This document shows, piece after piece, positions 2,382-43,596 of a DNA stretch of 64,000 bases. The notes beneath the pieces are model-generated. The model was not told the origin of the DNA. It saw only the letters and a list, made by a program, of their open reading frames with translations, and did no database searches. Source of the stretch: Candidatus Parcubacteria bacterium (lineage in GTDB: Bacteria > Patescibacteriota > Minisyncoccia > UBA6257 > 2-01-FULL-56-20). The translations under genes were made by a program, and so were the position numbers. The first letter of the stretch is position 1, and each line of letters starts with the position of its first letter. The stretch lies in assembly GCA_027355945.1 (NCBI GenBank), contig DAIEHA010000002.1, positions 15,071-79,070 on the forward strand, written 5' to 3'.

Positions 2382-2971
2382 GGTATACTGAATGCAGTCC
2401 TCTGATAGAAGAATATGAAGTTTACCGCGTGAAACGCGGCGATAATGTGACGAATCTGTCACGTTGATGCGACACTGGATGTCGCGCAGTTGGTTCGGTG
2501 TTATCATGCAAAAGGGCAATCCCTAATTTTTTTACAAAAGGGCATTGCCCTTTGCGAGTTTTTGGGGGTATGGCTGCGATTCCGGAACCTGAGATCTGTG
2601 GCCGAAGATCGGTGCACGACCTCCCTATTTTCATATTGGACCCCAAGAGGAACCCGAAGGTCGCAGTGAATACATATCATAATGCCCCATCGATTGAGCG
2701 TGGTGCGTGTTGCATCACAGCAGCACTCCAGCAAAAGGGATATCTTCCGAACTTGAGCGGGCAACGGGAGTCGGACCCGTGTCTTCACCTTGGAAGGGTG
2801 ACATAATACCGTTATACCATGCCCGCATCGGCCGACCCTGCGGGATTATTGTAGCCTCTCGTCCGGAGAATCTCAATAGCGCCATGGCGGATAAGCCCCA
2901 TTTTCATCGAGGAGACCTCGAAAAATACTTGCTTTTTGACCCTGTTTTTGTTAGAACTATTCATATTGTCC

Positions 2972-3568
2972 ATGGCCAATTTCTCGCGAAAGATCAAGTT
3001 AGTCCTTATATTTGTTGCAATAATCGTAGCGGGTTATGCGCTTGCGTTCTACTGGCAGACGAGGAATAGGGTCCCTCTTGCGTTCGTGAATGCCCGCAAT
3101 CAGGGGGCGATCATCGCCCAGAGCATCGTAAGCACCTCGAACAGCTCCACTGCCACGCTCGAAAAAATAGATCAGTATGACAGGGAGGGGAACTATGCCC
3201 AGGCCCTTGCTCTCACCCAGGGGCTCGTGAGTCAGAGCGTGGATCTTCGCAATCAGGCCATCAACCTTTCCAATCAGATCGAAACGATGACCCAGTCCCT
3301 TTCCGGCATAAAGGACTTCACTGCCCAACAGGATGCCCTCGAAGCGATATCGAGCCATCTTGCGCTCATCAATCAGCTCATCAATTACAGCGGCGATCTT
3401 GGGAAGCTTCTTGATACCCTCCAGATGCGTTTCAGCGGGCAGACGGGGACTTTGGGCGAAGTGACGGGCCAGGTTGCCCAGATAAACATCGACATCAACG
3501 CCATCAACAATTTCAACAATCAGGCTCAGCAATCCATGCAGGCATTTGATAAAATAGAGAACAAGTGA
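2972..3568 (+). CDS. Hypothetical signal-anchored coiled-coil protein
   Basis: ORF 2936..3568. The internal start at MANFSRKIKLVLIFVAIIVAGYALAF gives a charged N-terminus plus TM anchor. The rest is Q/N/L-rich predicted coiled coil. No recognisable family. Confidence 0.45.
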   Translation: MANFSRKIKLVLIFVAIIVAGYALAFYWQTRNRVPLAFVNARNQGAIIAQSIVSTSNSSTATLEKIDQYDREGNYAQALALTQGLVSQSVDLRNQAINLSNQIETMTQSLSGIKDFTAQQDALEAISSHLALINQLINYSGDLGKLLDTLQMRFSGQTGTLGEVTGQVAQINIDINAINNFNNQAQQSMQAFDKIENK

Positions 3569-3588: not shown

Positions 3589-3660
3589 GGGCACATAGCT
3601 CAACGGTAGAGCAGACGTCTTATACACGTCCGGTTCTAGGTTCGAATCCTAGTGTGCCCA
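3589..3660 (+). tRNA. tRNA-Ile with anticodon UAU (reads AUA)
   Basis: Manual cloverleaf: acceptor GGGCACA/TGTGCCC, D stem GCTC/GAGC, anticodon stem GACGT/ACGTC, loop CTTATAC (U33, anticodon TAT, A37), T arm CTAGG-TTCGAAT-CCTAG, discriminator A. CCA not encoded. Confidence 0.75.
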
Positions 3661-3664
3661 CAAA

Positions 3665-3690
3665 AATCCCCGCATGTGCGGGGATTCTTT
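3665..3690. terminator. Bidirectional rho-independent terminator between the tRNA (+) and ftsH (-)
   Basis: Perfect hairpin AATCCCCGCA-TGT-GCGGGGATT, flanked by an A-run upstream and TCTTTT downstream. Confidence 0.6.
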
Positions 3691-5519
3691 TATGCAGTGA
3701 TCGGCTTTATTTTGAACGGTCTTAGGACGGCGTTGAAATCATCCTGTTCGAGCACCTCCTTTTCCATGAGCGTGTCCGCGACCTTCTTGAGGGCCGCTTT
3801 ATGGGACTTGAGCACTTTTTCGGCGACATCGTAGGCGTGCATGAGGAACTTCTTCACTTCCTCATCGATCTCCGATGCCACCTTCTCCGAATAGTTCTTT
3901 TCCGAGGAGATCTCCCTTCCAAGGAACATCATCTCCTCCGTTTTTCCGAACGTCATGGGGCCCAGTTCGCTCATGCCGTATTTCGTCACAAGCTTCCTTG
4001 CAAGGTCGGATGCCTCTTTTAGATCGTTCGACGCCCCAGTGGAGATATCCCCGAACGTAAGCTTTTCCGAGGCATAGCCTCCCATCATCATGGCAAGATC
4101 CGCGAGGAATTGCGCCCTTGTTTTGAGGTGCACATCCTCATTGGGGAGTTTCATGGTATATCCTCCCGCAAAACCGCGGCTTATGATGGAGACCTTTTGC
4201 ACGGGATCGGCATCCTTCAGAGATGCAGCCACGAGCGCGTGCCCGCCTTCGTGATATGCGGTTATCTCTTTCTCGTGCTGGGAAATGACACGACTCCGGC
4301 GCTCCGGCCCCATAATCACCTTCTCCGCTGCTTCAAGAAGGTCCGCCTGACCGATCATCTTCTGTCCGTGCCTCGCGGCGGCGATGGCCGCCTCGTTCAT
4401 GAGATTCGCGAGATCCGCTCCCGAAAAGCCCGGTGTGCGTTGCGCCACCCTCCGAAAGTCCACGTCCTTCCCGATGGTCTTCCCTTCGGCATGGATCCTG
4501 AGGATCGCTTCCCGATCCTTCATGTCGGGAAGATCGAGGATGATGCGACGATCGAAACGGCCCGGGCGGAGAAGCGCCGGATCGAGGACGTCCGGACGAT
4601 TCGTCGCCGCGAGGACGATGACCCGCGTATCCCTATCAAAGCCGTCCATTTCCACGAGGATCTGGTTCAGCGTCTGTTCGCGCTCATCGTTGCCTCCGCC
4701 CATGCCTGCGCCGCGCTGGCGTCCCACCGCGTCGATCTCATCGATGAAGAGGATCGCAGGAGCCGCCCGTTTCGCGGTAAGGAATGCATCTCTTGTGCGC
4801 GAGGCGCCTACCCCCACGAACATCTCCACGAACTCGGATGCGGAGATGAAGAAGAAAGGAACATTGCTTTCGCCTGCAATCGCCCTTGCGACGAGGGTTT
4901 TTCCGGTTCCCGGGGGTCCCATGAGCAGGATCCCGCGGGGGATCCTTGCCCCAAGATCGAGGAATTTCTTGGGGGTTTTAAGGAAATCAACGACCTCGAT
5001 GAGCTCCTCTTTTGCCTCCTTGAGCCCGGCCACGTCCTTGAACATGACACGATCCTTGAATGAGGAGACTTTGAGGTTGGAACGGCCGAAATTGAAGGCC
5101 TGGTTCACCCCTGATCGCGCCTGTCGGAACATAAGCCAGAAAAGGACGCCGACCAGAAGCAGTTCGAGAAGGGGAGGAAGGAGTAGGCTTGCCCAATATT
5201 GCGCCCCGCTCTGATTGACCACCTGGAGGTCCATATTTTGAAGCGCCTGATCGTTCACGCCGAGATTCTTGAGGGTGCTCGTGATGTCGGCGCCATCCTC
5301 CTTCTGCGATACCGCAGCACTGCCGTCGGTCATCGTAATATCAAGCTCGGACCCATTCACCTTTATCTGTTTTACCTGTCCTGCGTTGATGTCGCTTGCG
5401 AGCTGGCTCAGGCTGAGCGTCTTTGCCGAGGGAGCGGGAGTGAAAAAGAACGAGAATATGAGCGATATCACGATGAGCGTGATGACGGCCCATATGATGT
5501 TTTTTGAGAGGTTTGACAT
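3690..5519 (-). CDS. ftsH: ATP-dependent zinc metalloprotease FtsH
   Basis: Walker [21 protein letters not shown] region, and HEGGHAL zinc-binding motif. N-terminal [19 protein letters not shown]. The ORF extends to 5543, but the MSN start at 5519 matches FtsH N-termini better. Confidence 0.93.
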
Positions 5520-11866: not shown

Positions 11867-12262
11867 TTAGTCGACGGGGATCTCCAGGAAGTGCAGGCGC
11901 CTTCTCCGGAAGGAATATGCAATGGATCTGCCGCTCCTGTCGATGGTGATATTGGTCAGCGTGCCTTCCCGACCGCTTATCAGGTTTCTGAGCCGAGCAG
12001 CTTTCTGCTCCGAGGGCGCAATGATGGCGACCCCGTCCACTTCAAGGATCCTGTCCCCAGCTTCGATGATGCCCGCAGCCGGAGTGTTGGGCTGGACCTT
12101 GGTTACGAAGAGGCCGTATCCATGGTCAACCGGACGAATATCGATGAAGACACCGATGCCCATCTGATCGAGCAGGCCGACTTTCGCAGCAACGAGGATC
12201 AAGGGTATTGCGATGTACGCAAGTACGCATGCGCCAATGATATACGGAACTGCGCTGTTCAT
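11867..12262 (-). CDS. PDZ-domain membrane protein
   Basis: ORF 11867..12370. The internal start MNSAVPYII follows AAAGGGG. TM helix, then a PDZ-like GLFVTKVQPNTPAAGIIEAGDRILEVDGVAI segment. Confidence 0.6.
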   Translation of the reverse strand: MNSAVPYIIGACVLAYIAIPLILVAAKVGLLDQMGIGVFIDIRPVDHGYGLFVTKVQPNTPAAGIIEAGDRILEVDGVAIIAPSEQKAARLRNLISGREGTLTNITIDRSGRSIAYSFRRRRLHFLEIPVD

Positions 12263-12559
12263 GAGATCCCCTTTCTTTGGGTTGCGATTTTTCCGAGGCT
12301 TCGGGAAGCATAGCAATGTTTTTCTTGTTTGAAAAGCCGTCAATGTCGGCAAAATAGGCGTTCGTATCATATCCGCACCTTTATCCGCAGATGGCGATCC
12401 GCGCCCTCCTTCTCGGCGAACGAAGCGTCGGGCGCAACCATATCCTCGGCAGCACCGCTCGTCGCGACCGGACCGCTCGCGCCATAAGTACGGTCCATGA
12501 ATGGGAGGTTTTTACTCGCAGAGAATGCGGAAGATATAAAGGGATTGAGAGTGCGGTAT

Positions 12560-12583
12560 GCTCAAAACCCAACAAGGGGTGCC
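12560..12583. repeat. Direct repeat copy of the tRNA-His 3' end plus trailer (left copy)
   Basis: gctcaaaacccaacaaggggtgcc matches 24629..24653 gctcaaaatccaacaggggggtgcc (2 mismatches, 1 indel), same orientation. Confidence 0.6.
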
Positions 12584-12616
12584 CGGGTGGAGGAAGTCAG
12601 GACCTGTTTCAGAGAG
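12577..12616. repeat. Conserved intergenic motif, copy A (GGGTGCC-N3-GTGGAGGAAG-YCRGGAC-YTGTY)
   Basis: Aligns with copies at 13201..13240 and 14316..14354. All lie between consecutive minus-strand genes. Confidence 0.55.
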
Positions 12617-12617
12617 T

Positions 12618-13073
12618 TTAGCGCAATTGTTCCCAATATCCTTTTTCCCTAACCTTCGCTTCTATTTTCGCTTTCAGTACTGTGATATCCATAGAATCCG
12701 GAGACGGAGATGCCTCCTGTTCTGCGAGAGATGCCCGAAGAGAATCAATTTCTTTTTCAAGCGCTTCAAATTTATTACGCCGGGATGCGTCGCGATCCTC
12801 CCTCTCTTTACGAGACGCCAACCATTGATTGACTTCGAGATCCGTTTCAAGTGCTTTTTCGTGCGCGACATCAACTGGGGAGATTTTTCTCTCGAAGAGC
12901 TTTCCGGAGAGTGCTCTATCGAGAAATCCGCTGCCGTTCTTGAGATCGGCACGGAATTTGAATTCCTCATCGGATTCTTTGCGTGAACGCTGCATGCGGG
13001 CTTGCCAGGACTCCTCGCTTTCGTTGGTATGTTTCCAACTTTCCGATCCGCCCATAGGAAAATTTTGGGACAT
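12618..13073 (-). CDS. Hypothetical charged coiled-coil protein
   Basis: 151 aa, E/K/R-rich, no TM. Codon pattern consistent with coding. Confidence 0.45.
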   Translation of the reverse strand: MSQNFPMGGSESWKHTNESEESWQARMQRSRKESDEEFKFRADLKNGSGFLDRALSGKLFERKISPVDVAHEKALETDLEVNQWLASRKEREDRDASRRNKFEALEKEIDSLRASLAEQEASPSPDSMDITVLKAKIEAKVREKGYWEQLR

Positions 13074-13200
13074 AATAAAATCATATCATAAGGTCAAACT
13101 TCCTTTAGGGATATATCAAATCAGCCCCATAAAATTTATCCAAAAAATCGCTGGATCAGAGGGGTGTGCCCGAACCATCGGTTCAAATAAGAACCACTTT

Positions 13201-13240
13201 GGGTGCCTTAGTGGAGGAAGCCGGGACTTGTCTGATGAGT
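13201..13240. repeat. Conserved intergenic motif, copy B
   Basis: GGGTGCCTTAGTGGAGGAAGCCGGGACTTGTCTGATGAG; same orientation and core as copies A and C. Confidence 0.55.
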
Positions 13241-13273
13241 GGATGACGAAAAGGAGGACCTCAAGCAGGAGTT

Positions 13274-14194
13274 CTATGGGGTGATGCTAAACGGAGAGCT
13301 GAATGCGTTTGTAGCGCCATAGCCAACCACCACTTCATAGTTATTACCAGGGGGAACATTGGACGGCACTGTCCAGAGATAATTTCCTACATAGCTCCCC
13401 GTCGATGCCGGAGCATCGCTCACTATTCCGTATTGGTCGCCACTCGACGCATTTATGAGATTGATCGAAACAGTGGTCAGGCCGGAGGAGTTCCATGAGA
13501 TTCTTTCCTTTTCCCCCACCCTCCATAGCGACCCCTGGATCGGCGAGACTATCTGGATCGAGGCCTTTGATTGTGACGCATTCTTTGTGGAACCGGAGGG
13601 CGTTGTTACCGCAGGGAGGGTTGTCGAAGAAGAGGTGGCAATACTCGGTAGGATACCTCCCGAACTCGTTGTGTTTGTGGAAGATGTCGCGAGGGGATTC
13701 GCATATTCTTGAGCGATTTTTTGCTCTTGTTGCTGTGCGTATTGATTTTGTTGTCCAGTTACATAGAAACTTATCGCAAAATAAAGGGCGCACAGAACGA
13801 ATGTCGCTATGATTTTGAAGGCAACACTACTGCCGAGACGATCGGAAAAATCATCATGATTTTTCTCCGGTGGCAACGGATCGTCGCCGTATTGATTTGG
13901 GCCCGCTGTCCCAGACCGAAGGAGAAGGCCCAGAAGGAGATAGACATTGAAGACAGGGACGAGCATGGCGAGCACATACAAGCCTGATTTCCCGAGGTCG
14001 TGGAAGCGTCGGAAGGTTATAAAGATCGTAAAAATAAAAACGACGATATAAAAAAGGGATGCAACAAGCCCCGCTACAATAAAATTGGGAATAAGAACGG
14101 AAGAAATCAAATAAATACCGCCTGTAGCAACAACGGCCAATGCGACGCTCCAAATAAGGAAACGCAAACGGCCGATTCGACCTCCAATTTCCAT
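13274..14194 (-). CDS. DUF805-like membrane protein with Ser/Thr-rich linker and C-terminal extracytoplasmic beta-sandwich-like domain
   Basis: 306 aa. N-terminal RRFHDLGKSGLYVLAMLVP resembles the DUF805 (YhaH-like) family. Several TM helices, an S/T tract, and a C-terminal IQIVSPIQGSLWRVGE...YEVVVGYG domain. Confidence 0.55.
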   Translation of the reverse strand: MEIGGRIGRLRFLIWSVALAVVATGGIYLISSVLIPNFIVAGLVASLFYIVVFIFTIFITFRRFHDLGKSGLYVLAMLVPVFNVYLLLGLLLRSGTAGPNQYGDDPLPPEKNHDDFSDRLGSSVAFKIIATFVLCALYFAISFYVTGQQNQYAQQQEQKIAQEYANPLATSSTNTTSSGGILPSIATSSSTTLPAVTTPSGSTKNASQSKASIQIVSPIQGSLWRVGEKERISWNSSGLTTVSINLINASSGDQYGIVSDAPASTGSYVGNYLWTVPSNVPPGNNYEVVVGYGATNAFSSPFSITP

Positions 14195-14315
14195 GTTTTT
14201 ATTATAGCAAACGCCCTCGCCGAAAATTTTGCCCTACGCCGCATTTTTACTTATCGGTCCAAACTTGCATCAGGGTCCTCCCTGTAAGTCCCCTACAACC
14301 CATCGAATTTTGGGT

Positions 14316-14354
14316 GGGTGCCTTGATGAAGGAGGTCAGAACCTGTTCGGTGAG
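14316..14354. repeat. Conserved intergenic motif, copy C
   Basis: GGGTGCCTTGATGAAGGAGGTCAGAACCTGTTCGGTGAG. Confidence 0.5.
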
Positions 14355-14377
14355 ATAAATCCCTCTTTTGGAGAAAA

Positions 14378-14406
14378 TAAAATACCCGCCAAGCGGGTAT
14401 TTTATT
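14378..14406. terminator. Bidirectional rho-independent terminator
   Basis: AAAATACCCGC-CAA-GCGGGTATTTT perfect hairpin flanked by A and T runs, directly 3' of the stop of the minus gene at 14412. Confidence 0.55.
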
Positions 14407-14411
14407 GCTTA

Positions 14412-14753
14412 TTACTTTGTGCTCGTTGCTTGCGGGGCATTTTGATAATATCCTCGCATCATGCCGCCGGGCCCGTAATAATAGGTCGGGGCTCCCGCAG
14501 ACTGGGTGGGAGCCGCGTTTTGGCTCTGATAGTAATATCCACCCATCATCGGCATATAGCCGTAGGGATAAGGAGAGCCGCCATAATAGCCATTTTCCAT
14601 CATGCCGGGCCACATGCCATATCCGTAATAGCCAAGGGTAGTTTTGAACTCACCCACTTTGACGCCCATACAGAAGACCACGATCAAGATAAGAATGCCG
14701 AGGACCCAGCGAAGCAATTTATGATGACCGTCTTCGTGCGTATGTTCTTCCAT
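14412..14753 (-). CDS. Small Met/Tyr/Gly-rich membrane-anchored protein with His-rich N-terminus (possible metal-binding)
   Basis: ORF to 14873. The internal start MEEHTHEDGHHKLL precedes one TM, then a GYYGYGMWPGMMENGYYGG...MPMMGGYYY tail. Divergent from csoR. Confidence 0.5.
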   Translation of the reverse strand: MEEHTHEDGHHKLLRWVLGILILIVVFCMGVKVGEFKTTLGYYGYGMWPGMMENGYYGGSPYPYGYMPMMGGYYYQSQNAAPTQSAGAPTYYYGPGGMMRGYYQNAPQATSTK

Positions 14754-14810
14754 AGTAATTAATTTTTTGTTGGCGACCTTTATCCTAAGACGACAGTACA
14801 TTATGTATAA

Positions 14811-14825
14811 TACCCCTATAGGGTA
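14811..14825. promoter_or_regulatory. CsoR-type operator box 1 (TACCC-N5-GGGTA)
   Basis: Inverted repeat TACCCCTATAGGGTA overlapping a TATAAT hexamer (14806..14811). Resembles the B. subtilis CsoR box. Confidence 0.55.
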
Positions 14826-14843
14826 TACTGTCAAATACTCAAT

Positions 14844-14873
14844 TTGACACGCGATACCCAGTGGGGGTATCAT
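14844..14873 (+). promoter_or_regulatory. csoR promoter: TTGACA-N18-TATCAT with operator box 2 (14855..14869) in the spacer
   Basis: TTGACA at 14844..14849, TACCCAGTGGGGGTA inverted repeat, TATCAT at 14868..14873. Identical architecture to 21275..21304. Confidence 0.6.
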
Positions 14874-14879
14874 AAGGAT

Positions 14880-15149
14880 ATGGATAAGGTAATAAAGAAA
14901 AAAGCCTTACGAAGGCTTCAGATCGTAAAGGGGCAGATCAAAGGCCTCGAAAAAATGATCGACGATGAAAAGTATTGCATCGACGTTATTACACAATCAT
15001 CCGCTATCAAGCAGGCTCTTTCTGGCGTTGAAGATCTTTTATTAGAGAACCATCTTGCTACACATGTGGCGATGCAAATGAAGAGCGGAGAAAGTAAGAA
15101 GGCGACCGCAGAGATGGTAAAAGTATATAAGCTATCAAAGCGAATATAA
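14880..15149 (+). CDS. csoR: CsoR/RcnR-family (DUF156) metal-sensing transcriptional repressor
   Basis: RLQIVKGQIKGLEKMIDDEKYCIDVITQSSAIKQALSGVEDLLLENHLATHV matches the CsoR-family core with conserved Cys and His ligands. ORF track start is 14844; 14880 chosen (near-leaderless from the TATCAT -10). Confidence 0.8.
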   Translation: MDKVIKKKALRRLQIVKGQIKGLEKMIDDEKYCIDVITQSSAIKQALSGVEDLLLENHLATHVAMQMKSGESKKATAEMVKVYKLSKRI

Positions 15150-15150
15150 T

Positions 15151-15564
15151 ATGAGATCAGTGCTTGCGATCGTGATTATGGTGGCTGCGATCTTCGCTCT
15201 CGTGGCGGGTAGTTTCGCCATGGTCAATATGGGATCCGGCAGTCATACAAACTGTCTTGCGGCGATTCCCGGGAGTCCAAAATGTCTTGGAAGGATGGAT
15301 CTGTTTCAATTCGCAATAACGCATATTAGTACACTCCTCGGCATATCGCTCGGGATCGTCAGTCCAATAACAGCTTTTCTCTTGGCTGCGTTCGCAGTGC
15401 TCGTATGGATCGCAGTTTCTAATTCGTTCAACTTACTGTTGGGTTCCTTGGGCTATTCAAGGGTTTTTATTGAGGCAGAAATAGGTAGCGCTCGTAAGCA
15501 ACACCACTGGATCTCCCTTCTTGAGAAACGCGATCCGTCTTCGTCTTGCGCTATGAACGTCTAA
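15151..15564 (+). CDS. Hypothetical membrane protein co-transcribed with csoR
   Basis: Starts 1 nt after the csoR stop. 137 aa, three TM helices, a Cys pair (HTNCLAAIPGSPKC), and C-terminal SSSCAMNV. Confidence 0.5.
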   Translation: MRSVLAIVIMVAAIFALVAGSFAMVNMGSGSHTNCLAAIPGSPKCLGRMDLFQFAITHISTLLGISLGIVSPITAFLLAAFAVLVWIAVSNSFNLLLGSLGYSRVFIEAEIGSARKQHHWISLLEKRDPSSSCAMNV

Positions 15565-15599
15565 GCGAATCAATCTCGCCGCGTCGTTTATAGCGCCCC

Positions 15600-15622
15600 A
15601 AACCGCATCCCTGCGGTTTTTT
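15600..15622 (+). terminator. Rho-independent terminator
   Basis: AACCGCA-TCCC-TGCGGTT followed by TTTTT. Confidence 0.55.
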
Positions 15623-15822
15623 CGTTGCACATAAATTCATCGGTCTATTGCCATGCATAAAAGCAAAAAGGTCGTTATCAGTAAAACAGAGCCATTCTTC
15701 ATCATCCTGACACTTGTCGGTGCGTTCGCGTTGTTTACATAGCAAACGTTGCGGATGGCGCAATATCACATGAGTGCGCCCCCTCTCCAGTAAAGCACTA
15801 CCACTATAATCTCCCAATCCAA

Positions 15823-16314
15823 ATGAATAGAAAACCAACGTTAGAAGAGTTCCTTAAAAAAATTGAATCAACAAAAGAAAAGGCGGGCGTTGATCTGTCG
15901 ACGGCTGAAGATCTGAGCATCGCAGTCATGAACCTCATAAGCCTCGAAGAGCATTTTTTCTTCACGGGAATAAAAACGAAAAAAGATGAGTACTTCGACA
16001 CAGTGCAAGAGATCCGGGAGTTGCGTAAACAATTTCTCACGCAATTAATGCCTAAGCACGAAGGGGAAACGTGGTGCATCTCAAAACATCTTCTTTCCGC
16101 CACGATGCGCCTTATTGAAGTGGGCAATAAGTTGCAATCGGAAGGCATAAAAGAAAAAGCGAAGCAAACATTTGAAGGAGCCTATAAGGTCTACTCGATC
16201 TTTTGGGCCCTCAAATTGGATCTCGTTAATGGCAGCGAGATTAAGGAAGCGGCAAGGGGCGGCTCCGACTTAGAAACAATTATCGCTAAGATGGCCGATT
16301 GCTGCAATGAATAG
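15823..16314 (+). CDS. Hypothetical cytoplasmic protein ending in DCCNE
   Basis: 163 aa, helical and charged, no TM. C-terminal vicinal cysteines. Confidence 0.45.
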   Translation: MNRKPTLEEFLKKIESTKEKAGVDLSTAEDLSIAVMNLISLEEHFFFTGIKTKKDEYFDTVQEIRELRKQFLTQLMPKHEGETWCISKHLLSATMRLIEVGNKLQSEGIKEKAKQTFEGAYKVYSIFWALKLDLVNGSEIKEAARGGSDLETIIAKMADCCNE

Positions 16315-16331
16315 TAACAACGATAAATAAA

Positions 16332-17297
16332 ATGGAACACGAAACACATCATCACGAACAAGAAACAGAGTTAATGGAAGAGCTTCTTCCGGAGACGGTG
16401 GTAAAAAGCCATAAAAAAGACTTGTTCTTACCACTCAGTATTCTTGCAGTAGCACTGCTTATCGCTTCAGCATTCGTCTATCTTGGCAATCAGAGAACGG
16501 CATCGGGGCGCAGCACTCCTATACAAAATATCTCAGCCGCTACATTGCAGGAAAAGGTAATTCCGGCAAACGGCGTGATATTGCCGGTTCGCTGGGGCGA
16601 TCTCGGGAGGCAGCTTGTATCGGCGGGTGTCATTAATGAGCCGCAATTCCTCGCGCTCTATGCGCAGCGCGGGGGGTTATCGCCCGACATGAAGGCGCTT
16701 CTTGATAATGCAGATAATGGGAATCTCATTATTACATTGCAAAATTCCGGCACCATATTAAATCTTTTATGGGCGCTTGGCCTTGGGAACAATAATCCAA
16801 TCCTTACGAGCGGGCCCATGGAGAATCCTCAATACGGAGGCGCAAAGAACTTTGCTTCGACTGGCGGTTGGACGCTTTCAGTCGGCAATGCGATGAACCA
16901 TTATAGCGCTCATTCGTTCGTAACGCTTACCGCCGATCAGCAAGCACGTGTGGTGCGTGTCGCACAAAACATCTATCGCCCGTGCTGCGGAAACTCCACG
17001 TTATTCCCGGATTGCAATCATGGCATGGCGATGCTTGGACTCCTTGAGCTCATGGCATCGCAGGGCGTTTCGGAAGCGGACATGTACAAGGCCGCGCTCG
17101 CGGTGAATTCGTATTGGTTCCCTGATACCTATCTCACACTTGCAACCTACTTCCAAAGCCAGGGCGTCGATTGGAGTGCTGTCGACTCAAAGACGGTGCT
17201 TGGTGCTGGATATTCAAGTGCTCAAGGATACCAGCAGATAGTAAATAAAATAACTCCAGTGCAGGCGCAATCGTCGGGCGGCTGCGGGGTGCAATAA
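16332..17297 (+). CDS. Membrane-anchored extracytoplasmic protein with His-rich N-terminus and C-terminal SGGCGVQ tail
   Basis: 321 aa. MEHETHHHEQETE N-terminus, single TM, Cys-rich PCCGNSTLFPDCNHG motif. The C-terminal tail is shared with the next ORF. Confidence 0.55.
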   Translation: MEHETHHHEQETELMEELLPETVVKSHKKDLFLPLSILAVALLIASAFVYLGNQRTASGRSTPIQNISAATLQEKVIPANGVILPVRWGDLGRQLVSAGVINEPQFLALYAQRGGLSPDMKALLDNADNGNLIITLQNSGTILNLLWALGLGNNNPILTSGPMENPQYGGAKNFASTGGWTLSVGNAMNHYSAHSFVTLTADQQARVVRVAQNIYRPCCGNSTLFPDCNHGMAMLGLLELMASQGVSEADMYKAALAVNSYWFPDTYLTLATYFQSQGVDWSAVDSKTVLGAGYSSAQGYQQIVNKITPVQAQSSGGCGVQ

Positions 17298-17313
17298 CCA
17301 AAATTGAAATCTT

Positions 17314-17505
17314 ATGAAATCAACGAATGACAATTTCTGGTTATTCATAAGCATCGGATTGTTTGTAATCATCGTCGGAACTGCGGGAGCTTATGCATTT
17401 CGGTCATTCAGTACGAATGCCGTATCACAAGAGAACGCCACTGTCGTTGCGCCATCACAAACCCAAACACCTTCATCCGGCCAAAGCGGCGGATGTGGGG
17501 TCTAA
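17314..17505 (+). CDS. Small membrane-anchored peptide ending in SGGCGV
   Basis: 63 aa with one TM (FWLFISIGLFVIIVGTAGAYAF). Its C-terminus QSGGCGV parallels the upstream protein's SSGGCGVQ although encoded by different codons. Confidence 0.45.
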   Translation: MKSTNDNFWLFISIGLFVIIVGTAGAYAFRSFSTNAVSQENATVVAPSQTQTPSSGQSGGCGV

Positions 17506-17510
17506 TCGCT

Positions 17511-18374
17511 ATGGAAACAATAATCAGTACATCACTCATTGCGGCATTTATCGCAGGCATCGCGGCCTTGTTCGCGCCATGCTGCGTTACGGTGCTTCTG
17601 CCCGCATACTTCGGTTCGATCTTTCGCACGAGGCGGAAGGTGTTCCTCATGACATTCATTTTCTTCCTCGGCATCTTGACCGTATTCCTTCCGTTAGGAC
17701 TCGGTTTCTCGATGCTTGGACAGGTGTTCAGTCGTTATCATCGCGAGATCTTCACGGTCATTGGTATGGTACTTTTCGCTTTGGGAATCTCACTTCTCTT
17801 AGGAAAGAGGCTCCCTATGCCGAAATCAATGCGCCTCAAACCGGAACTCACTGGAAATGAGAACGCTGGATCAGTGTATCTTCTTGGCATCTTCTCCGGC
17901 ATCGCAACCACTTGTTGTGCGCCGGTACTCGCGGGAGCGCTCGCGCTTTCGGTGTTGCCGGGTTCGTTCATCTGGGGAATTATCTACACACTCGCCTACG
18001 TGCTCGGCATGGTGACCCCACTCTTTGTCCTTGCGGCAGCACTTGACCGGACCAAGATGTCCGAACGTCTCCTTGGCGTGCGGAAGCCGTTGGAATTCAC
18101 GCTATTCGGAAAGGCCATTCGCATGAGGATCTCCGACCTCCTTGCGGGACTGACTTTCTCGATCATGGGAGCACTCACGCTCTACTGGGCATCGATGAAT
18201 CAGGTTGCCGTGCATTCGATGTTGCAAGTGAATATCAACATCTATCTCACGCAGCTGAATAATTTCCTTACCCCCTATATCGGGTGGGTGCCGCAATACG
18301 CGTGGGCGGTCATGTTCGTCGGACTCCTCGTAGCGCTCGTGGTGCTTGCTCTCAAGCAATTCAAAAAGGACTGA
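17511..18374 (+). CDS. CcdA/DsbD-superfamily thiol-disulfide transporter-like membrane protein with vicinal Cys pairs
   Basis: FIAGIAALFAPCCVTVLLPAYF parallels the CcdA TM1 motif (SPC-x3-LLP-x-Y). GIATTCCAPVLAGAL parallels the TM4 motif. Both carry CC instead of a single Cys, as in MerT TM1. ORF track start is 17493. Confidence 0.7.
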   Translation: METIISTSLIAAFIAGIAALFAPCCVTVLLPAYFGSIFRTRRKVFLMTFIFFLGILTVFLPLGLGFSMLGQVFSRYHREIFTVIGMVLFALGISLLLGKRLPMPKSMRLKPELTGNENAGSVYLLGIFSGIATTCCAPVLAGALALSVLPGSFIWGIIYTLAYVLGMVTPLFVLAAALDRTKMSERLLGVRKPLEFTLFGKAIRMRISDLLAGLTFSIMGALTLYWASMNQVAVHSMLQVNINIYLTQLNNFLTPYIGWVPQYAWAVMFVGLLVALVVLALKQFKKD

Positions 18375-18392
18375 TTAAAAAAACATAAAACC

Positions 18393-19013
18393 ATGAAAAA
18401 AAATACATCAAACGGTACTATGGCGGTTAAAGTGATCGGCATTTTTGCTATCTCGATATTTATCCTCGGAGGTATCGCTCTACTCAGTTATGAGAACAGC
18501 GACGCAGCACCTCAGGCGGGCGCCACAGGGTCTGGTAGCTTCGGCAGTGCACTCATCGGCAAGCCCGCGCCGCAATTTTCGCTGAAAGATCGCAACGAAG
18601 TCACATACACCCCAGATAGTTTGAAAGGAAAGAATGTGATTCTTTTCTTTAACGAGGGAATTATGTGCTATCCCGCATGCTGGAATCAGATGGTCGCGCT
18701 CGCGACGGATCCTCGGTTTCAAACATCCGATACGATCGCGCTTTCCATCGTGATCGACTCTCCGGATCAATGGCAGTCGGCGATCCAGAAAATGCCGGAC
18801 CTTGGGAAGGCAACCGTTCTCTTTGACACCGATAAATCCATTTCGCAGGAATACGGGATGCTCACCGCACTATCTTCGATGCATTACGGTTCCTACCCAG
18901 GTCATTCGTTCGTGATCCTCGACAAACAAGGGATCGTCCGCTTCGTCTATGATGACCCAGCTATGGGCATTGATGACGATCGTATCGCGGCCGATCTCCA
19001 AACGTTGAAATAG
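18393..19013 (+). CDS. SCO1/SenC-like copper-binding thioredoxin-fold protein
   Basis: Signal anchor. KNVILFFNEGIMCYPACW gives a CxxxC motif after a beta strand, as in SCO proteins. Downstream HSFVILDKQGIVRFVY matches the conserved SCO His region. Confidence 0.65.
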   Translation: MKKNTSNGTMAVKVIGIFAISIFILGGIALLSYENSDAAPQAGATGSGSFGSALIGKPAPQFSLKDRNEVTYTPDSLKGKNVILFFNEGIMCYPACWNQMVALATDPRFQTSDTIALSIVIDSPDQWQSAIQKMPDLGKATVLFDTDKSISQEYGMLTALSSMHYGSYPGHSFVILDKQGIVRFVYDDPAMGIDDDRIAADLQTLK

Positions 19014-19014
19014 C

Positions 19015-19464
19015 ATGCATAGACCGATCACGAAATCCTTTATCGGAGGGTCTATTGCGACGGGCACGCTCATCGCGGCATATTTCGCAATCGTTTCCCT
19101 CATATCGGGATTTGCATTCGCCGGAAGTCAGTTTGTGGAATTCTGGTTCTACTTCGTGGGATTGGCACTCGGCTTCGGCATTCAGATCGGGCTTTACATC
19201 TATCTGAAGCAACTGGTCCGTGGCGCAAGCGGCGGGCCAGTGGTGGCGGTGACGGGGATGACCTCGACCGCCGCCATGGTTGCGTGCTGCACCCACTATC
19301 TCGTGAACATTCTGCCAATTCTTGGAATAAGCGCCTTCGCCTCATTTGTCGGCGAATATCAGGTTCAGTTCTTTTGGGTTGGTATCGCATTCAATCTTGT
19401 GGGTATCGTCTATATTGCAAGTCGAGTTATAAAAGTCAGGGGGAATATGCAGCACATTGCATGA
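19015..19464 (+). CDS. Hypothetical four-TM membrane protein, possibly the N-terminal half of a split ICMT-like methyltransferase
   Basis: 149 aa, hydrophobic. Ends 4 nt into the next ORF, in a different frame. Contains ACCTHY. Confidence 0.45.
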   Translation: MHRPITKSFIGGSIATGTLIAAYFAIVSLISGFAFAGSQFVEFWFYFVGLALGFGIQIGLYIYLKQLVRGASGGPVVAVTGMTSTAAMVACCTHYLVNILPILGISAFASFVGEYQVQFFWVGIAFNLVGIVYIASRVIKVRGNMQHIA

Positions 19465-19748
19465 ACAAATCAAATCTTGCATGGACTGTCCTCTGTGAAG
19501 CACAGAAAGAACATACGCTTGCAATCGCGGGGCCGTATGCCCGCATTCGTCATCCACAATACATGGCATTCATACTTGTTATGCTTGGGTTCCTGTTTCA
19601 GTGGCCGACCATTCTCACGCTTGCTATGTTTCCGGTACTTCTGTGGATGTATGTGCATCTCGCGCGAACCGAAGAGAGAGAAGCGCAAGCGATCTTTGGC
19701 GTGGAATGGAATGCATATGCGGCGCAAACACCCGCGTTCATTCCCTAA
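19461..19748 (+). CDS. Isoprenylcysteine carboxyl methyltransferase (ICMT/PEMT) family C-terminal catalytic fragment
   Basis: AGPYARIRHPQYMAF (the RHPxY motif) and EEREAQAIFGVEWNAYAAQTPAFIP (C-terminal EE...FG..Y..Y motif). Only ~95 aa from the ATG at 19461. Confidence 0.5.
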   Translation: MNKSNLAWTVLCEAQKEHTLAIAGPYARIRHPQYMAFILVMLGFLFQWPTILTLAMFPVLLWMYVHLARTEEREAQAIFGVEWNAYAAQTPAFIP

Positions 19749-19790
19749 TGGAAACGAAACAATAAATCATTGAAATAAAAATCAACACCT

Positions 19791-19966
19791 ATGTTCAGAA
19801 TCTTTAAGAAAAAGTGTCCGATTTGCAGGATGGCACTCGAAGAAGGAAAACAATATCCTGAGGAATTCGGTAAACAATTCTGTTCGGAAAGATGCAAGAC
19901 ACAGTATCAAGAATTAACAAATAAAAAGAAGCAATCGCAACATTCCAGCCATGGTGGGTGTTGTTA
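19791..19966 (+). CDS. YHS/TRASH-domain small metal-binding protein ending in GGCC
   Basis: Hand translation: MFRIFKKKCPICRMALEEGKQYPEEFGKQFCSERCKTQYQELTNKKKQSQHSSHGGCC. C-x2-C...C-x3-C matches the TRASH/YHS pattern. Shorter than 60 aa, so absent from the ORF track. Confidence 0.55.
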
Positions 19967-19979
19967 AGAGTTCAACGCT

Positions 19980-21278
19980 ATGCGGTTATCGTTTCTTTTG
20001 ATCGGACTCGGATTTGTCGCGGTTTTGGCCGTCGGGGGTATTTCGAGTTCTCGTGCAGTAGCTGCAACGGTGGTAGCTACGAGTACTGGCGGCAATGCTT
20101 CGCAAGTCCAGATCAATACGGATAACCAACAGATCGCAGACCTCAACCAAAAAATAGCATCCTACCAAGCGCAACTTCGGAAAGTAGGTGCGGATAAGAA
20201 AACGCTCCAAGCGGCTATTCACGCGCTCGATTTGCAACGCAGCAACGCACAAGTGCAGGTTGCCGTTACCCAACTGCAGATCAACGCAACCCAGGCCCAG
20301 ATCAAACAGTTGGGCGGAGAGATATTGGGAGCGAAGCAGACGATAGCAGGGGATCAGGCGGCGCTCGGAGAATATCTTCAAAGTCTTCAAAAAGCCGACG
20401 ATAAGCCGTTGATCGTGCAGATGCTTTCATCGGGCGGTCTTGTTCAAGCATGGGATGATATTAATGCGACAGTAAAGATGCAAACCGCCGTCCAAAATCA
20501 AATGCAGGCGCTTCGTGTCCAGGAAGACAGCCTTGCCAACTCGCAGACAGTTTCAAAACAGAAACAGGAAGCACTCACATCGCAAAAACAGGCATTGGCA
20601 TCACGGCAGCAATCGCTTATCGCGACGGAACAATCTAAAAGTCAGCTGCTCGCCGAAACCAAGTCGCAAGAATCTGCTTATCAAAAATTGCTTGCCGCGG
20701 CGCACGCGGAGCTCAGTAGCTTCTCGACGTTTACAGAGAACGCGGGCGGATCAAAACTGCTTGCCAATCAGACCAGTTGCGACTCGTGGGGCTGCTATTA
20801 TAATCAGCGTGATTCGGCATGGGGCGCTACTCCTCTTGATGGGACAAAATATACGCTTGCACGCGCAGGGTGCCTCATTGCATCCGTGGCGATGGTGCTC
20901 ACGCATTACGGGTATAAGGATGTGACGCCTGCGACCATCAACTCGAACCCCGATAACTTCGCGGGGTATTCACCCGATCTGCTGCTCGCGTCGATCGACG
21001 TTGACGGTGTGACCGTTATGCGAAAGGCCATCAGGGTGAAAGGTGCCACTGCCGCACGAAAAATTTCAGTTATTGATGCGATGCTTGCGACTGGCCATCC
21101 GGCAATCGTCGGCATGAATGCCCTCGGCGGCACGCATTTTGTCGTACTCACGAGCGGGAGCAATGGTGATTACCTCATGCGCGATCCGTATGTAGCGAAT
21201 GGTAACGGTATCAGCTTCACCTCCTATTATTCATTGAAGGAGATATATAGCATTGCGAAGATCGTGATCGGGAGTTGA
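19980..21278 (+). CDS. Secreted coiled-coil protein with C-terminal C39-like (papain-fold) cysteine peptidase domain
   Basis: Signal peptide, ~250 aa Q/A-rich coiled coil, then SCDSWGCYYNQ...AGCLIASVAMVLTHYGY...GGTHFVVL resembling Peptidase_C39_2 with its Cys and His. PcsB-like architecture. Confidence 0.55.
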   Translation: MRLSFLLIGLGFVAVLAVGGISSSRAVAATVVATSTGGNASQVQINTDNQQIADLNQKIASYQAQLRKVGADKKTLQAAIHALDLQRSNAQVQVAVTQLQINATQAQIKQLGGEILGAKQTIAGDQAALGEYLQSLQKADDKPLIVQMLSSGGLVQAWDDINATVKMQTAVQNQMQALRVQEDSLANSQTVSKQKQEALTSQKQALASRQQSLIATEQSKSQLLAETKSQESAYQKLLAAAHAELSSFSTFTENAGGSKLLANQTSCDSWGCYYNQRDSAWGATPLDGTKYTLARAGCLIASVAMVLTHYGYKDVTPATINSNPDNFAGYSPDLLLASIDVDGVTVMRKAIRVKGATAARKISVIDAMLATGHPAIVGMNALGGTHFVVLTSGSNGDYLMRDPYVANGNGISFTSYYSLKEIYSIAKIVIGS

Positions 21279-24628: not shown

Positions 24629-24653
24629 GCTCAAAATCCAACAGGGGGGTGCC
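24629..24653. repeat. tRNA-His 3' end plus trailer; right copy of the direct repeat
   Basis: Matches 12560..12583. Confidence 0.6.
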
Positions 24654-24719
24654 TAACGGGAATCGAACCCGTATCATCGGAGCCACAATCCGAGGCTCTA
24701 CCATTAAGCTATAGGCACC
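24648..24719 (-). tRNA. tRNA-His (GUG) with encoded G-1
   Basis: Manual fold: G-1 plus acceptor GTGCCTA/TAGGCAC, D stem GCTT/GAGC, anticodon stem TCGGA/TCCGA, loop TTGTGGC (anticodon GTG), T arm ACGGG-TTCGATT-CCCGT, discriminator C. Confidence 0.85.
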
Positions 24720-26107: not shown

Positions 26108-26947
26108 ATGATCATCGATGGGAAGGCCATTGCGGCCGAAATCATGGAACGACTGAAGGCCCTTCCGAAACAGGACCGCTTCTTCGGCGCGGTTCTCGTC
26201 GGACGCGATCCCGCGTCGGTGAACTTTCTTGCACAGAAGGAGCGCGTTGCGCGCGAACTCGGCATCGATTTCCGCCTCTATGAATTCCCTGAAGCGACGA
26301 CGACCGATGTCCTTCGCGCGGAGATCGGACGTCTTGCCGCCCCCAAGGCTTGCGGCGCCCTCATCGTCCAACTTCCTCTCCCGGAACATGTGAACCGGCA
26401 TTATGTCCTTAATGCGATCCCGAAAGGCAAGGATGCCGACTGTCTCGGCGAGTCCGCGCTCGGTGCGTTTTATACCGGAAGGGGGGCGATCGTCCCTCCC
26501 TCTGTTGCCGTGGTGGAGGAGGTCATTCGGAGGGAGATTCGAGGAGACCTTCGCACGCTCAATGCGGCGGTGGTGGGCGCCGGGTTCCTCATCGGCAAAC
26601 CGGTGGGATTCTGGCTCCAGAACCGCGTAGGGGAGCTCGTCGTGCTCGATATCTCCGTACGGGACGTGCACGCGAAGCTTGGCGAAGCCGATATCGTGGT
26701 GAGCGGCACCGGACACGCGCACCTTTTCAACGCAGCCCATCTGAAGCCCGGCGCGCTTGTGATCGATTTCGGGTTTGCCCGTGACGCTTCCGGAAAGATC
26801 GCGGGCGATTTCGATCCCGCCGGGGCCGAAGAAAAGGGGATACGCTACACGAGGACCCCCGGCGGCACCGGCCCCCTGCTCGTTGCAAAGCTCTATGAGA
26901 ATTTCTATAGCCTCAATTCCCCATCATCCGTCTTTGGTGCGCGCTGA
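26108..26947 (+). CDS. folD: Bifunctional methylenetetrahydrofolate dehydrogenase/cyclohydrolase
   Basis: MIIDGKAIAAEI start and typical FolD core (VVVGAGFLIGKP-like NAD(P) binding). ORF track start 25964 lies inside glyA; start at 26108 preferred. Confidence 0.88.
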   Translation: MIIDGKAIAAEIMERLKALPKQDRFFGAVLVGRDPASVNFLAQKERVARELGIDFRLYEFPEATTTDVLRAEIGRLAAPKACGALIVQLPLPEHVNRHYVLNAIPKGKDADCLGESALGAFYTGRGAIVPPSVAVVEEVIRREIRGDLRTLNAAVVGAGFLIGKPVGFWLQNRVGELVVLDISVRDVHAKLGEADIVVSGTGHAHLFNAAHLKPGALVIDFGFARDASGKIAGDFDPAGAEEKGIRYTRTPGGTGPLLVAKLYENFYSLNSPSSVFGAR

Positions 26948-27009
26948 GGGATTTGAACCCCCGACCCACTCCGTGTAAAGGAGTTGCTCTACCCCTGAGC
27001 TAAGCGCGC
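26935..27009 (-). tRNA. tRNA-Val (UAC) with encoded CCA
   Basis: Manual fold: acceptor GCGCGCT/AGCGCGC, D stem GCTC/GAGC, anticodon stem ACTCC/GGAGT, loop TTTACAC, T loop TTCAAAT, 3' ACCA. Overlaps the folD stop by ~13 nt. Confidence 0.85.
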
Positions 27010-30363: not shown

Positions 30364-30437
30364 ATTGGTCGGGCCGCCGGGAATCGAACCCGGTCTATCT
30401 GCTCCCAAAGCAGACGTACTACCGGTATACTACGGCC
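30364..30437 (-). tRNA. tRNA-Pro (UGG) with encoded CCA
   Basis: Manual fold: acceptor CGGGCCG/CGGCCCG, anticodon stem TCTGC/GCAGA, loop TTTGGGA (G37), T arm CCGGG-TTCGATT-CCCGG, 3' ACCA. Confidence 0.85.
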
Positions 30438-30553
30438 CGAGATCAAGGGAATCGCCCCGCACGATACGGGGGGCGATGACCGCGACGCGGCCAGACGGCC
30501 GTTCGCATCCCTTTAAATTATCTTACTTTTGGTCTATTATCAATGCGCGATAC

Positions 30554-30626
30554 GCCCCCGTAGCTCAATGGATCAGAGCAGGACTCTTCTAAGGTCTCGA
30601 TGTGGGTTCGATTCCTACCGGGGGTA
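30554..30626 (+). tRNA. tRNA-Arg (UCU)
   Basis: Manual fold: acceptor GCCCCCG/CGGGGGT (G1-U72), D stem GCTC/GAGC with a 9 nt loop, anticodon stem GGACT/GGTCT (two GU pairs), loop CTTCTAA, T arm GTGGG-TTCGATT-CCTAC, discriminator A. Confidence 0.75.
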
Positions 30627-30751
30627 CAACCGAGAAAAAGCATTTCGAGAGAGCGGTATTCCGGTCTCCCGGGTCGCGCCGCCGGGATGCGGCATTTTCC
30701 CCCGGGAAGGATCGGTCGGCGTGCGAGGGGATCGTGCGCGATCCCCGGATA

Positions 30752-32172: not shown

Positions 32173-32239
32173 GTATATATATAATCACAAACATCCCGTT
32201 GATACAACGTGGATAGCGGGGGAACATGACCTCTTTTTG

Positions 32240-32310
32240 TGCCGCGGGGTAGAATCGAACTGCCGTACTCCGCTCTTCAGGCGGATGCTCTACCATTGAG
32301 CTACCGCGGC
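32240..32310 (-). tRNA. tRNA-Phe (GAA)
   Basis: Manual fold: acceptor GCCGCGG/CCGCGGC, D stem GCTC/GAGC, anticodon stem TCCGC/GCGGA, loop CTGAAGA. T arm GGCAG-TTCGATT-CTACC has one C-A mismatch. Discriminator A. Confidence 0.75.
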
Positions 32311-32990: not shown

Positions 32991-33017
32991 AAAAAGCCCC
33001 TTGCGGGGCTTTTTTTA
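32991..33017. terminator. Bidirectional terminator 3' of rpsA
   Basis: AAAAAGCCCC-TTGC-GGGGCTTTTTTT. Confidence 0.6.
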
Positions 33018-34109
33018 TTTCTTCATCTTCAATGTGATGCGCTTCTCCTCGGTCCTTACCTGATCGATGACGAAAGAATAGGTCTGGCCCACTGCGAGCG
33101 CTTTCTTCATCTCTTCCTGTCCTCCGAATTCTGAGATATGCACCATGCCCTGGAGATCGCCTTCAAGCGCGATCACCGCTCCGAATGGATTGAATTTGTA
33201 TACCCGTCCCTGGACTGCGGCGCCGGGCTTTATCTCGGGGGAGAGTTTTGCCCACGGATCCTCCTTGAGGGCTTTGAGGGAAAGGAATACGCGGCCCTCC
33301 TTGATATCGATGATCTTCGCCTTGAGAGGGTCGTTCACTTTCACGAGCTCTTTGGGGTTGTCGATGAGTTTGTAATCGAGCTCCGAGATGTGGATCATGC
33401 CTTCGATCTGAGGATTGTCAGCGAAGCGGACGAAGACGCCGAAATCGGCGACGCCCGAGACGATGCAGTCGACCACCTGGCCGACGGTATACGATGCGAG
33501 AAGCTCCTTCACGTTTGCCGTGAGCGTTTCGCGCTCGGAGACGATCACTTTGTTCGTACGAGGATTCGCGTCGATGATCTTCACGTTGAGTTCCTGGCCC
33601 ACGAACTTCTTGAGCTCCTCCGCGATCTTCGTGCGGTCCCCATCCGGGACTTTGGGATAATGTTCGAGGGAAAGCTGGGATACGGGGAGGAATGCTTTGA
33701 GGTCTTCGATGACCGTCGTCATAAGACCGCCCGCATTCGCTGCCACGATCTTCGCCTTGATGACCTCTCCCGCCTCCACGAGGTCCTTTACCTGTGCCCA
33801 AAGTTTCTGCTTGCCCGCCTCTGCGAGGGAAAGTTCAATGAGACCCTCTTCGCCATCAAGCGCCACGATCTTCGCCTGCACTTTTTCACCGGGATTGAGG
33901 TTTCGGAGCGCTTCGCGCGCGTTCGATACTTCGACGCCATACACGATGCCCGTTCCGAAACGGCCCATATCGAAGTAGGCCTTCCGTGGGAATTTCTTCA
34001 TAAGCTCCACGTCGAGGATCATTCCTTCCTTGGGCCATGCGGCCGAGGAGAGCTCCGTCTTGATCGCCTGCGCGATCGCCGATGCTTTGGGTTCTTCTGT
34101 TTGCGGCAT
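33015..34109 (-). CDS. rpsA: 30S ribosomal protein S1 (short form, four S1 domains)
   Basis: Four repeats of the S1 fold (for example GEVIKAKIVAANAGGLMT, GQELNVKIIDANPRTNKVIVSE, GQVVDCIVSGVADFGVFVRF, GAAVQGRVYKFNPFGAVIAL). The start at MPQTEEP is chosen over the 591 aa ORF extension, which overlaps the MBL gene. Confidence 0.82.
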   Translation of the reverse strand: MPQTEEPKASAIAQAIKTELSSAAWPKEGMILDVELMKKFPRKAYFDMGRFGTGIVYGVEVSNAREALRNLNPGEKVQAKIVALDGEEGLIELSLAEAGKQKLWAQVKDLVEAGEVIKAKIVAANAGGLMTTVIEDLKAFLPVSQLSLEHYPKVPDGDRTKIAEELKKFVGQELNVKIIDANPRTNKVIVSERETLTANVKELLASYTVGQVVDCIVSGVADFGVFVRFADNPQIEGMIHISELDYKLIDNPKELVKVNDPLKAKIIDIKEGRVFLSLKALKEDPWAKLSPEIKPGAAVQGRVYKFNPFGAVIALEGDLQGMVHISEFGGQEEMKKALAVGQTYSFVIDQVRTEEKRITLKMKK

Positions 34110-34251
34110 GAGGATGATTATAGAGGAAATCTTCGTTTTTGCAAGGGCTTCCGCATGTGATGCGTCCCCCGGCATCCTTGTGTGGCTTTTTTCGAAAACA
34201 GGCCGAAAATGGGCTGGAAATCGATGCTCGCTTCTGGTAAAATATACGCAT

Positions 34252-40517: not shown

Positions 40518-40526
40518 ATCCGATCG

Positions 40527-41228: not shown

Positions 41229-41259
41229 CATCCATTTGCTGGTGGTGTATAATTAAGCC

Positions 41260-41703: not shown

Positions 41704-41740
41704 GTTCGATCGGATAACAGGTCGTCATCCAAGAAAACAA

Positions 41741-42205: not shown

Positions 42206-42273
42206 TTTGCCCGTATCTCTAAATGGAGTATACTGGAAGGGTAACGTGAAAGGTCGAGTTATCGAACAAGCTT

Positions 42274-43474: not shown

Positions 43475-43596
43475 CATCGAAGTCCGGCGAGCGCGAGCAG
43501 AGCAACACGGGCGAGTATCTGCTTCACTGTATCTTCCGATAGCGTGACGATTAAAAAATAGACCCCCGTCCACGGATTTTCGTGGAGGGGGGTCTC

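Follow-up and report, generated by a model that had tools for sequence, protein, structure and literature searches.

In bacteria, AUA is canonically read by tRNA-Ile2(CAU) together with TilS, the lysidine system. The stretch of DNA analysed here (64,000 nucleotides, hereafter the window) carries a gene that had been read, from its letters, as a tRNA-Ile with the anticodon UAU encoded in the genome. This locus raises the question of whether such a gene is a genuine and selected tRNA, whether AUA still means isoleucine in its host, and whether it serves in place of the lysidine system or beside it.

Host and window

The host was identified through the ftsH gene next to the tRNA. The 80 genomes with the closest FtsH (GTDB species representatives, 63-90% identity) were all Patescibacteria/CPR MAGs, labelled Paceibacterota, Parcubacteria, Minisyncoccia, Harrisonbacteria, Liptonbacteria or Paceibacter, and were placed by NCBI taxonomy in the phylum Minisyncoccota, class Minisyncoccia. 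The complete chromosomes among them measured 0.80-0.90 Mb. The host is a small-genome Patescibacteria/CPR bacterium of the class Minisyncoccia (Paceibacteria/Parcubacteria). The window was found in a metagenome contig of 107.8 kb (ENA ERZ27236853 k141_2093859), for which Pfam lists cover positions 27,846-105,115 (77 kb). It encodes H+-PPase, ClpP, FtsH, CopA, SHMT, FolD, PhoH2, S1, GyrA, S15, PNPase, RecA, FtsK, cysteine desulfurase, HtrA and ClpB, as well as several T4SS-pilin genes in a row and numerous small genes that lack annotation.

Eight tRNAs are scattered over the 64 kb: Gly UCC (2755-2826), Ile UAU (3589-3660), His GUG (24645-24719), Val UAC (26935-27009), Pro UGG (30366-30439), Arg UCU (30554-30627), Phe GAA (32239-32310) and Leu UAG (43394-43475). 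All eight have U34 or G34, and the set looks like a minimal one, with one tRNA per decoding box. The divergent Pro/Arg pair and the Val and His tRNAs were syntenic in relatives. This number of tRNAs prompted a search for a phage origin, which was rejected: the phage collection gave no match, and the genes are those of chromosomal housekeeping (GyrA, RecA, FtsK, PNPase, ClpB).

Three other regions of the window were noted. GC content falls to 0.48-0.49 at 12000-20000, compared with 0.54-0.61 elsewhere; the genes there are DUF805/Kre9-like, DsbD-type, AhpC/TSA and peptidase C39-like, followed by a CopA-type P-type ATPase, and the stretch may be an acquired redox/metal island. Five small genes matching T4SS_pilin (PF18895), with one unannotated gene among them, lie at 39104-42669 on the forward strand, 3′ of GyrA and a solute-binding protein. 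An S1-domain ORF on the reverse strand (33015-34790) is open over 591 aa; the source-contig call gives 386 aa, and in the longer reading the S1-family matches begin only at about residue 230-300.

The features around the tRNA gene are as follows.

2755-2826, reverse strand: tRNA-Gly(UCC), called by ARAGORN; partner of tRNA-Ile(UAU) at 0.7-0.9 kb in close relatives
2876-2848, reverse strand: promoter-like site near tRNA-Gly(UCC), match 10 of 12
2972-3568, forward strand: called gene for a 198-aa membrane-anchored protein, no Pfam match
3589-3660, forward strand: tRNA-Ile(UAU) gene, 72 nt (ARAGORN; Rfam RF00005; family covariation)
3619-3625, forward strand: anticodon loop C32-U33-U34-A35-U36-A37-C38 (sequence; Rfam alignment)
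3621-3623, forward strand: anticodon U34-A35-U36 (sequence; invariant in 55 distinct family members)
3665-3696, forward strand: GC-rich hairpin (9 pairs, 6 of them G-C) followed by a T-run, terminator-like by site and sequence
3690-5519, reverse strand: ftsH (AAA and M41 protease, 609 aa; Pfam PF01434, PF00004, PF06480), convergent with tRNA-Ile(UAU)

The 198-aa protein has an N-terminal transmembrane helix and a Q/N-rich helical region. Its gene ends 20 nt upstream of tRNA-Ile(UAU) on the same strand, and its position was kept in about 65 related loci at 33-79% identity, indicating that the two genes are probably co-transcribed. The hairpin begins 5 nt past the 3′ end of the tRNA and directly adjoins the ftsH stop codon on the other strand; by its sequence it is a candidate shared (bidirectional) intrinsic terminator.

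The tRNA-Ile(UAU) gene and its conservation

The tRNA-Ile(UAU) gene at 3589-3660 on the forward strand reads GGGCACAUAGCUCAACGGUAGAGCAGACGUCUUAUACACGUCCGGUUCUAGGUUCGAAUCCUAGUGUGCCCA. ARAGORN called tRNA-Ile with the anticodon tat at 3589-3661 (+). Rfam RF00005 scored 72.6 bits on 3589-3660 (gathering score 29; E = 6e-14 for the whole window), the top tRNA score among the eight tRNAs of the window. The RF00005 alignment covered model positions 1-71 of 71 at maximal posterior probability and took CUUAUAC as the anticodon loop. The original prediction, which had folded the gene by hand into a canonical cloverleaf with the loop CTTATAC, was thus correct in its coordinates, fold and loop by both ARAGORN and RF00005. 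Both programs placed the anticodon at UAU, excluding another anticodon position. A lysidine-type tRNA has C at position 34; the window has T (3621). The discriminator A73 is position 3660, and CCA is not encoded (the next bases are CAA).

The IleRS identity set of E. coli, reportedly worked out by Nureki et al. in 1994, is said to consist of A35, U36, A37, A38 and A73 plus the pairs 4-69, 12-23 and 29-41. When the window tRNA was compared with this set, A35, U36, A37, A73, C4-G69, U12-A23 and C29-G41 were present, and C38 replaced A38. Across the family, A73 occurred in 55/55 sequences, U12-A23 in 52/55, C4-G69 in 46/55 and C29-G41 in 29/55, by rules that are those of E. coli and may not be those of this lineage.

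Selection on the structure was measured in an alignment of 55 distinct tRNA-Ile(UAU) family sequences. Cloverleaf pairing held in 99.6% of 1,154 cells. Compensatory (two-sided) changes were observed in 18 of the 21 pairs, and all five anticodon-stem pairs covaried. The covariation score was 0.747 against 0.177 in shuffles (0/500 reached it), and controls with slid partners gave 0.06-0.12. C32, U33, U34, A35, U36, A37 and A73 were invariant over the 55 distinct sequences. The anticodon arm was also searched, with N at position 34, against 241 million metagenome records. It gave 74 matches, with T34 in 74/74; the arm with C34 gave 0 matches in the same 241 million records.

Given this conservation, the possibility that the gene is a pseudogene or a chance tRNA-like sequence with no role in translation is negligible. 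When the tRNA was folded alone, its minimum-energy structure was not the cloverleaf, which could be taken in favour of a pseudogene; the anticodon hairpin was retained (z = -4.28), and a non-cloverleaf minimum is commonly seen when tRNA sequences are folded without modifications. Against it stand the highest Rfam tRNA score in the window, the compensatory covariation and invariant anticodon loop in the 55 sequences, the conserved synteny (see below) and the terminator-like hairpin after the gene. A pseudogene, which was one part of an outcome that would have overturned the original prediction, is excluded by the intact covarying stems, the invariant anticodon loop and the Rfam score.

The distribution of the gene was determined in the 80 FtsH-related GTDB species genomes. 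ARAGORN found tRNA-Ile(tat) in 64 of them, with TAT in all 64 copies, and the distinct sequences numbered 59, the window copy included. Both genes could be located in 60 loci, and in 55 of these the distance from the ftsH stop to the tRNA downstream of it was at most 1 kb (median 266 nt). Its arrangement differed with distance. In closer relatives the two genes converge, and tRNA-Gly(UCC) comes 0.7-0.9 kb after the tRNA, which is the order seen in the window; more distant relatives have the tRNA on the same strand as ftsH, with tRNA-Val(UAC) behind it, often at a distance of only 4-20 nt. The 74 metagenome contigs with the same anticodon arm provided a sample independent of the GTDB genome loci. 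FtsH was detectable on 41 of these contigs, with identity down to about 50%, and in 38 of the 41 the tRNA lay at most 1.6 kb from the FtsH C-terminal end. The presence of the same gene in 64 related species genomes and 74 metagenome contigs is far beyond chance. These results show that the structure and anticodon of tRNA-Ile(UAU) are under purifying selection in at least 64 species, and that the gene, anchored at ftsH, is the rule within this lineage and not an oddity.

The gene was missing at some loci. In eight, the sequence stops less than 1 kb past ftsH. Seven relatives (L027, L028, L033, L038, L043, L045, L057) had at least 2.7 kb downstream of ftsH without a UAU tRNA, yet had 5-19 AUA codons in ftsH, indicating that their AUA decoder is encoded elsewhere. 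The absence beside ftsH could reflect relocation or a second decoding system.

Variants of the locus were also observed. Two metagenome loci (L132, 246-431; L146, 1678-1863) carry a tandem pair of tRNA-Ile(UAU) genes, of two sequence subfamilies, 38 nt apart. At three loci (L099, 458-2279; L101, 1186-2925; L117, 3737-9325) the tRNA clusters with two CAU tRNAs, one of them the initiator (1:72 mismatch) and the second of either Met or Ile2 type, which brings all AUA/AUG decoders together in one place. In L101, a distant relative, a TrpRS-like gene lies between the tRNAs and ftsH.

AUA usage and the lysidine system

The original prediction had called for a look at AUA codon usage. AUA is in use and stands for isoleucine. 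Seventeen genes of the window that were identified with confidence contain 58 AUA codons among 8,587 (6.75 per 1000). AUA makes up 8.9% of Ile codons, at a frequency similar to that of AUU, and is present in 15 of these 17 core genes. The residues found in the alignment columns of 543 AUA codons from 76 FtsH orthologues were Ile (51%), Val (17%), Leu (16%) and Met (4%). The profiles of AUU and of AUC could not be told apart from it, and those of AUG, GUA and CUA differed, indicating that AUA is not reassigned; reassignment is excluded by the residue profile in these 76 orthologues.

These data bear on a reading in which the amino acid carried by the UAU tRNA is not isoleucine but, for example, Met, or in which this tRNA is a copy of tRNA-Val(UAC) or another neighbour with a mutated anticodon. 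AUA is read as Met in many mitochondria. Recoding is known in CPR, where UGA is read as Gly in Gracilibacteria (PMC13293708), and in distant relatives tRNA-Val(UAC) lies only 4-20 nt from the UAU tRNA. The residue profile speaks against altered meaning, and A73, A37, U12-A23 and C4-G69 fit the Ile identity set by the E. coli rules. As for a copied neighbour, mean identity was 71% within the tRNA-Ile(UAU) family and 62% to the neighbouring Val(UAC), and identity to the other tRNAs of the window was 44-61%. The family is thus coherent and no closer to Val(UAC) or other neighbour tRNAs, which argues that it is not a recent anticodon-shifted copy; an anticodon-shifted tRNA-Val was ruled out on these values. 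Similarity to E. coli tRNA-Ile2, tRNA-Met and tRNA-Ile1 was 64%, 61% and 61%, respectively, values too similar to favour or disfavour descent from a CAU tRNA-Ile2. Taken as a whole, non-isoleucine decoding is highly improbable.

Because the tRNA is genuine and selected and AUA is used as Ile, tRNA-Ile(UAU) can decode AUA without TilS acting on it. To this extent the TilS-independent decoding proposed in the original prediction is borne out; whether the lineage as a whole has dispensed with TilS is a separate matter, for which the lysidine system was searched directly.

According to the literature, about 98% of annotated bacterial genomes have tilS (PMC12514573, PMC11947777). No TilS-like PP-loop ORF was detected in the window by strict and relaxed motif scans in six frames, and no TilS appeared in the Pfam lists for 77 kb of the source contig (positions 27,846-105,115). 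The same was true of the 86 ftsH-anchored loci, window included (1.44 Mb, largely one syntenic region), and of the 74 metagenome loci (0.41 Mb), giving about 1.85 Mb of lineage DNA, mostly from the same syntenic region, without a TilS-like ORF. Upstream of ftsH, tilS was absent in about 120 loci, where other genes occupy the position. The PP-loop scans returned only two MnmA-like proteins and SHMT. The MnmA-like PP-loop proteins (tRNA 2-thiouridylase type) are encoded near ftsH in two distant relatives (L046, 3123-4367; L058, 8065-9309), and are the only candidates for U34 modification seen in the sampled DNA. CAU tRNAs near the UAU tRNA (L099, L101, L117, L153) never numbered three: they were the initiator and, at most, one more. 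No class I synthetase ORF with KMSKS of at least 700 aa was found in the ftsH loci, and none of at least 500 aa in the metagenome loci, indicating that ileS lies outside all sampled DNA.

A redundant decoder would also account for a functional UAU tRNA. On this account TilS and a lysidine-type tRNA-Ile2(CAU) are encoded elsewhere in the genome, and tRNA-Ile(UAU) is a second functional AUA reader. Both systems are documented together in some bacteria, namely Lactobacillus casei, Cyanothece and Ferrimonas (PMC3575796). The sampled DNA consists of loci, largely from one syntenic region, so that tilS and tRNA-Ile2(CAU) may sit elsewhere, and the seven relatives without a UAU tRNA at ftsH still use AUA. 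On the other hand, a redundant gene is expected to be patchy, whereas this one was found in at least 64 species, over FtsH divergence down to about 50-63% identity, with an invariant anticodon. No C34 form of this anticodon arm was detected in the metagenomes, no TilS-like ORF was detected in the approximately 1.85 Mb of sampled lineage DNA, upstream of ftsH included, and where CAU tRNAs adjoin there are only two (the initiator and one other). Conservation this deep, with an anticodon that never varies, speaks against a merely redundant role, and we regard a redundant decoder as possible but rather unlikely.

Proposed decoding and known systems

We consider it reasonably probable that tRNA-Ile(UAU) is the dedicated, probably sole, AUA decoder of this lineage, working like the systems of Mycoplasma mobile or Bifidobacterium/Neorickettsia. 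The minor tRNA-Ile would be made with an encoded UAU anticodon, in place of a CAU that TilS converts to lysidine. It would probably be transcribed with the small upstream 198-aa gene, and the transcript would stop at the hairpin shared with ftsH. After processing and post-transcriptional addition of the CCA end, IleRS would charge it with isoleucine, and U34 would pair with the A of AUA. As sole AUA decoder it would imply that the lysidine system was lost in the lineage. By analogy with known tilS-less bacteria, the IleRS of the lineage may accept U34 either because it is a eukaryote-type IleRS2 or because its zinc-binding domain is altered, with replacement of the Trp that contacts the wobble base. 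Misreading of AUG may be limited by the state of U34 (unmodified or specially modified) and/or by the ribosome, as in M. mobile.

A broader claim would be that the whole class Minisyncoccia dropped lysidine and TilS, and that an encoded tRNA-Ile(UAU), located at ftsH since early in the history of the class, decodes AUA. To this we give about an even chance. Minisyncoccia is one of the most species-rich bacterial classes. If the class-wide loss is true, no other bacterial clade known to decode AUA independently of TilS would come near it in size, and something adapted throughout the lineage, whether IleRS, U34 modification or the unusual ribosome of CPR, would keep AUG from being read as Ile. 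TIGR02432, the TilS family and a GTDB bac120 marker, and CAU tRNAs annotated as Ile2 would then not be expected in these genomes.

An encoded UAU tRNA-Ile is a known kind of bacterial gene, and the present case adds to it, probably by a whole class of members. Such genes had been recorded in 19 bacterial species in 2014 (PMC4013482). The original prediction had described a UAU tRNA-Ile as rare, which is true of that published record but not within this lineage, where 64 of the 80 species carry the gene and ftsH is its anchor. Automated MAG annotations surely list these tRNAs already. A search of open-access and bioRxiv full texts, in which few subscription journals are covered, found none linking CPR with AUA decoding or tilS. 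Nor is the link made in the paper that describes the one member of the class in culture (PMC12281837), or in a review on the phylum from 2026 (PMC13293708). Reviews and recent TilS papers place lysidine in almost all bacteria and list few exceptions (M. mobile, haemoplasmas, Bifidobacterium, Neorickettsia), and the present data show a UAU tRNA-Ile to be fixed in many species belonging to a major CPR class. Should the lysidine system truly be absent there, the exception would grow to a large slice of bacterial diversity, and dozens of natural sequence variants would become available for asking how a U34 tRNA avoids AUG. If TilS coexists, the gene would be an ordinary redundant tRNA of minor interest.

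Like the lysidine system, tRNA-Ile(UAU) serves to read AUA as Ile; it has Ile identity pairs of the E. coli type and is likewise associated with ftsH in the genome. In organisms such as Bacillus subtilis it is tilS that lies upstream of ftsH, in a tilS-hpt-ftsH cluster. The differences are that position 34 is U and not C, that TilS is not needed, and that tilS does not lie upstream of ftsH in about 120 loci.

Eukaryotic cytosolic tRNA-Ile(UAU) carries pseudouridines at 34 and 36 and usually an intron. It resembles the present tRNA in that an encoded UAU reads AUA, and it provides a case of a modified U34 that restricts AUG reading and serves IleRS2; Psi34 in the eukaryotic tRNA is cited in PMC11947777. 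In contrast, the tRNA described here has no intron and stands in a bacterial context.

Among bacteria, the closest experimental parallel is M. mobile, in which unmodified U34, an IleRS adaptation at Arg865 and ribosomal rejection of AUG were shown experimentally (Taniguchi et al., 2013; PMC3575796). The likeness lies in the reduced genome, the encoded UAU for AUA, the dedicated minor Ile isoacceptor and, in the DNA sampled here, no tilS. M. mobile is a single Mollicutes species, whereas here the gene is conserved over a class-level CPR lineage and anchored to ftsH. Bifidobacterium and Neorickettsia have tRNA-Ile(UAU) together with a eukaryote-type IleRS (IleRS2) and are without tilS (PMC3575796). 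They are likewise bacterial lineages with a UAU tRNA-Ile and offer a plausible model for an IleRS that accepts U34, although they belong to unrelated phyla.

Finally, tilS and tRNA-Ile(TAT) coexist in Lactobacillus casei, Cyanothece PCC 7424 and Ferrimonas balearica (PMC3575796), which share with this lineage a genome-encoded UAU tRNA-Ile. Those cases are sporadic, at the level of strain or species. The retention of the present gene, its anticodon unchanged, in at least 64 species points instead to an essential role.
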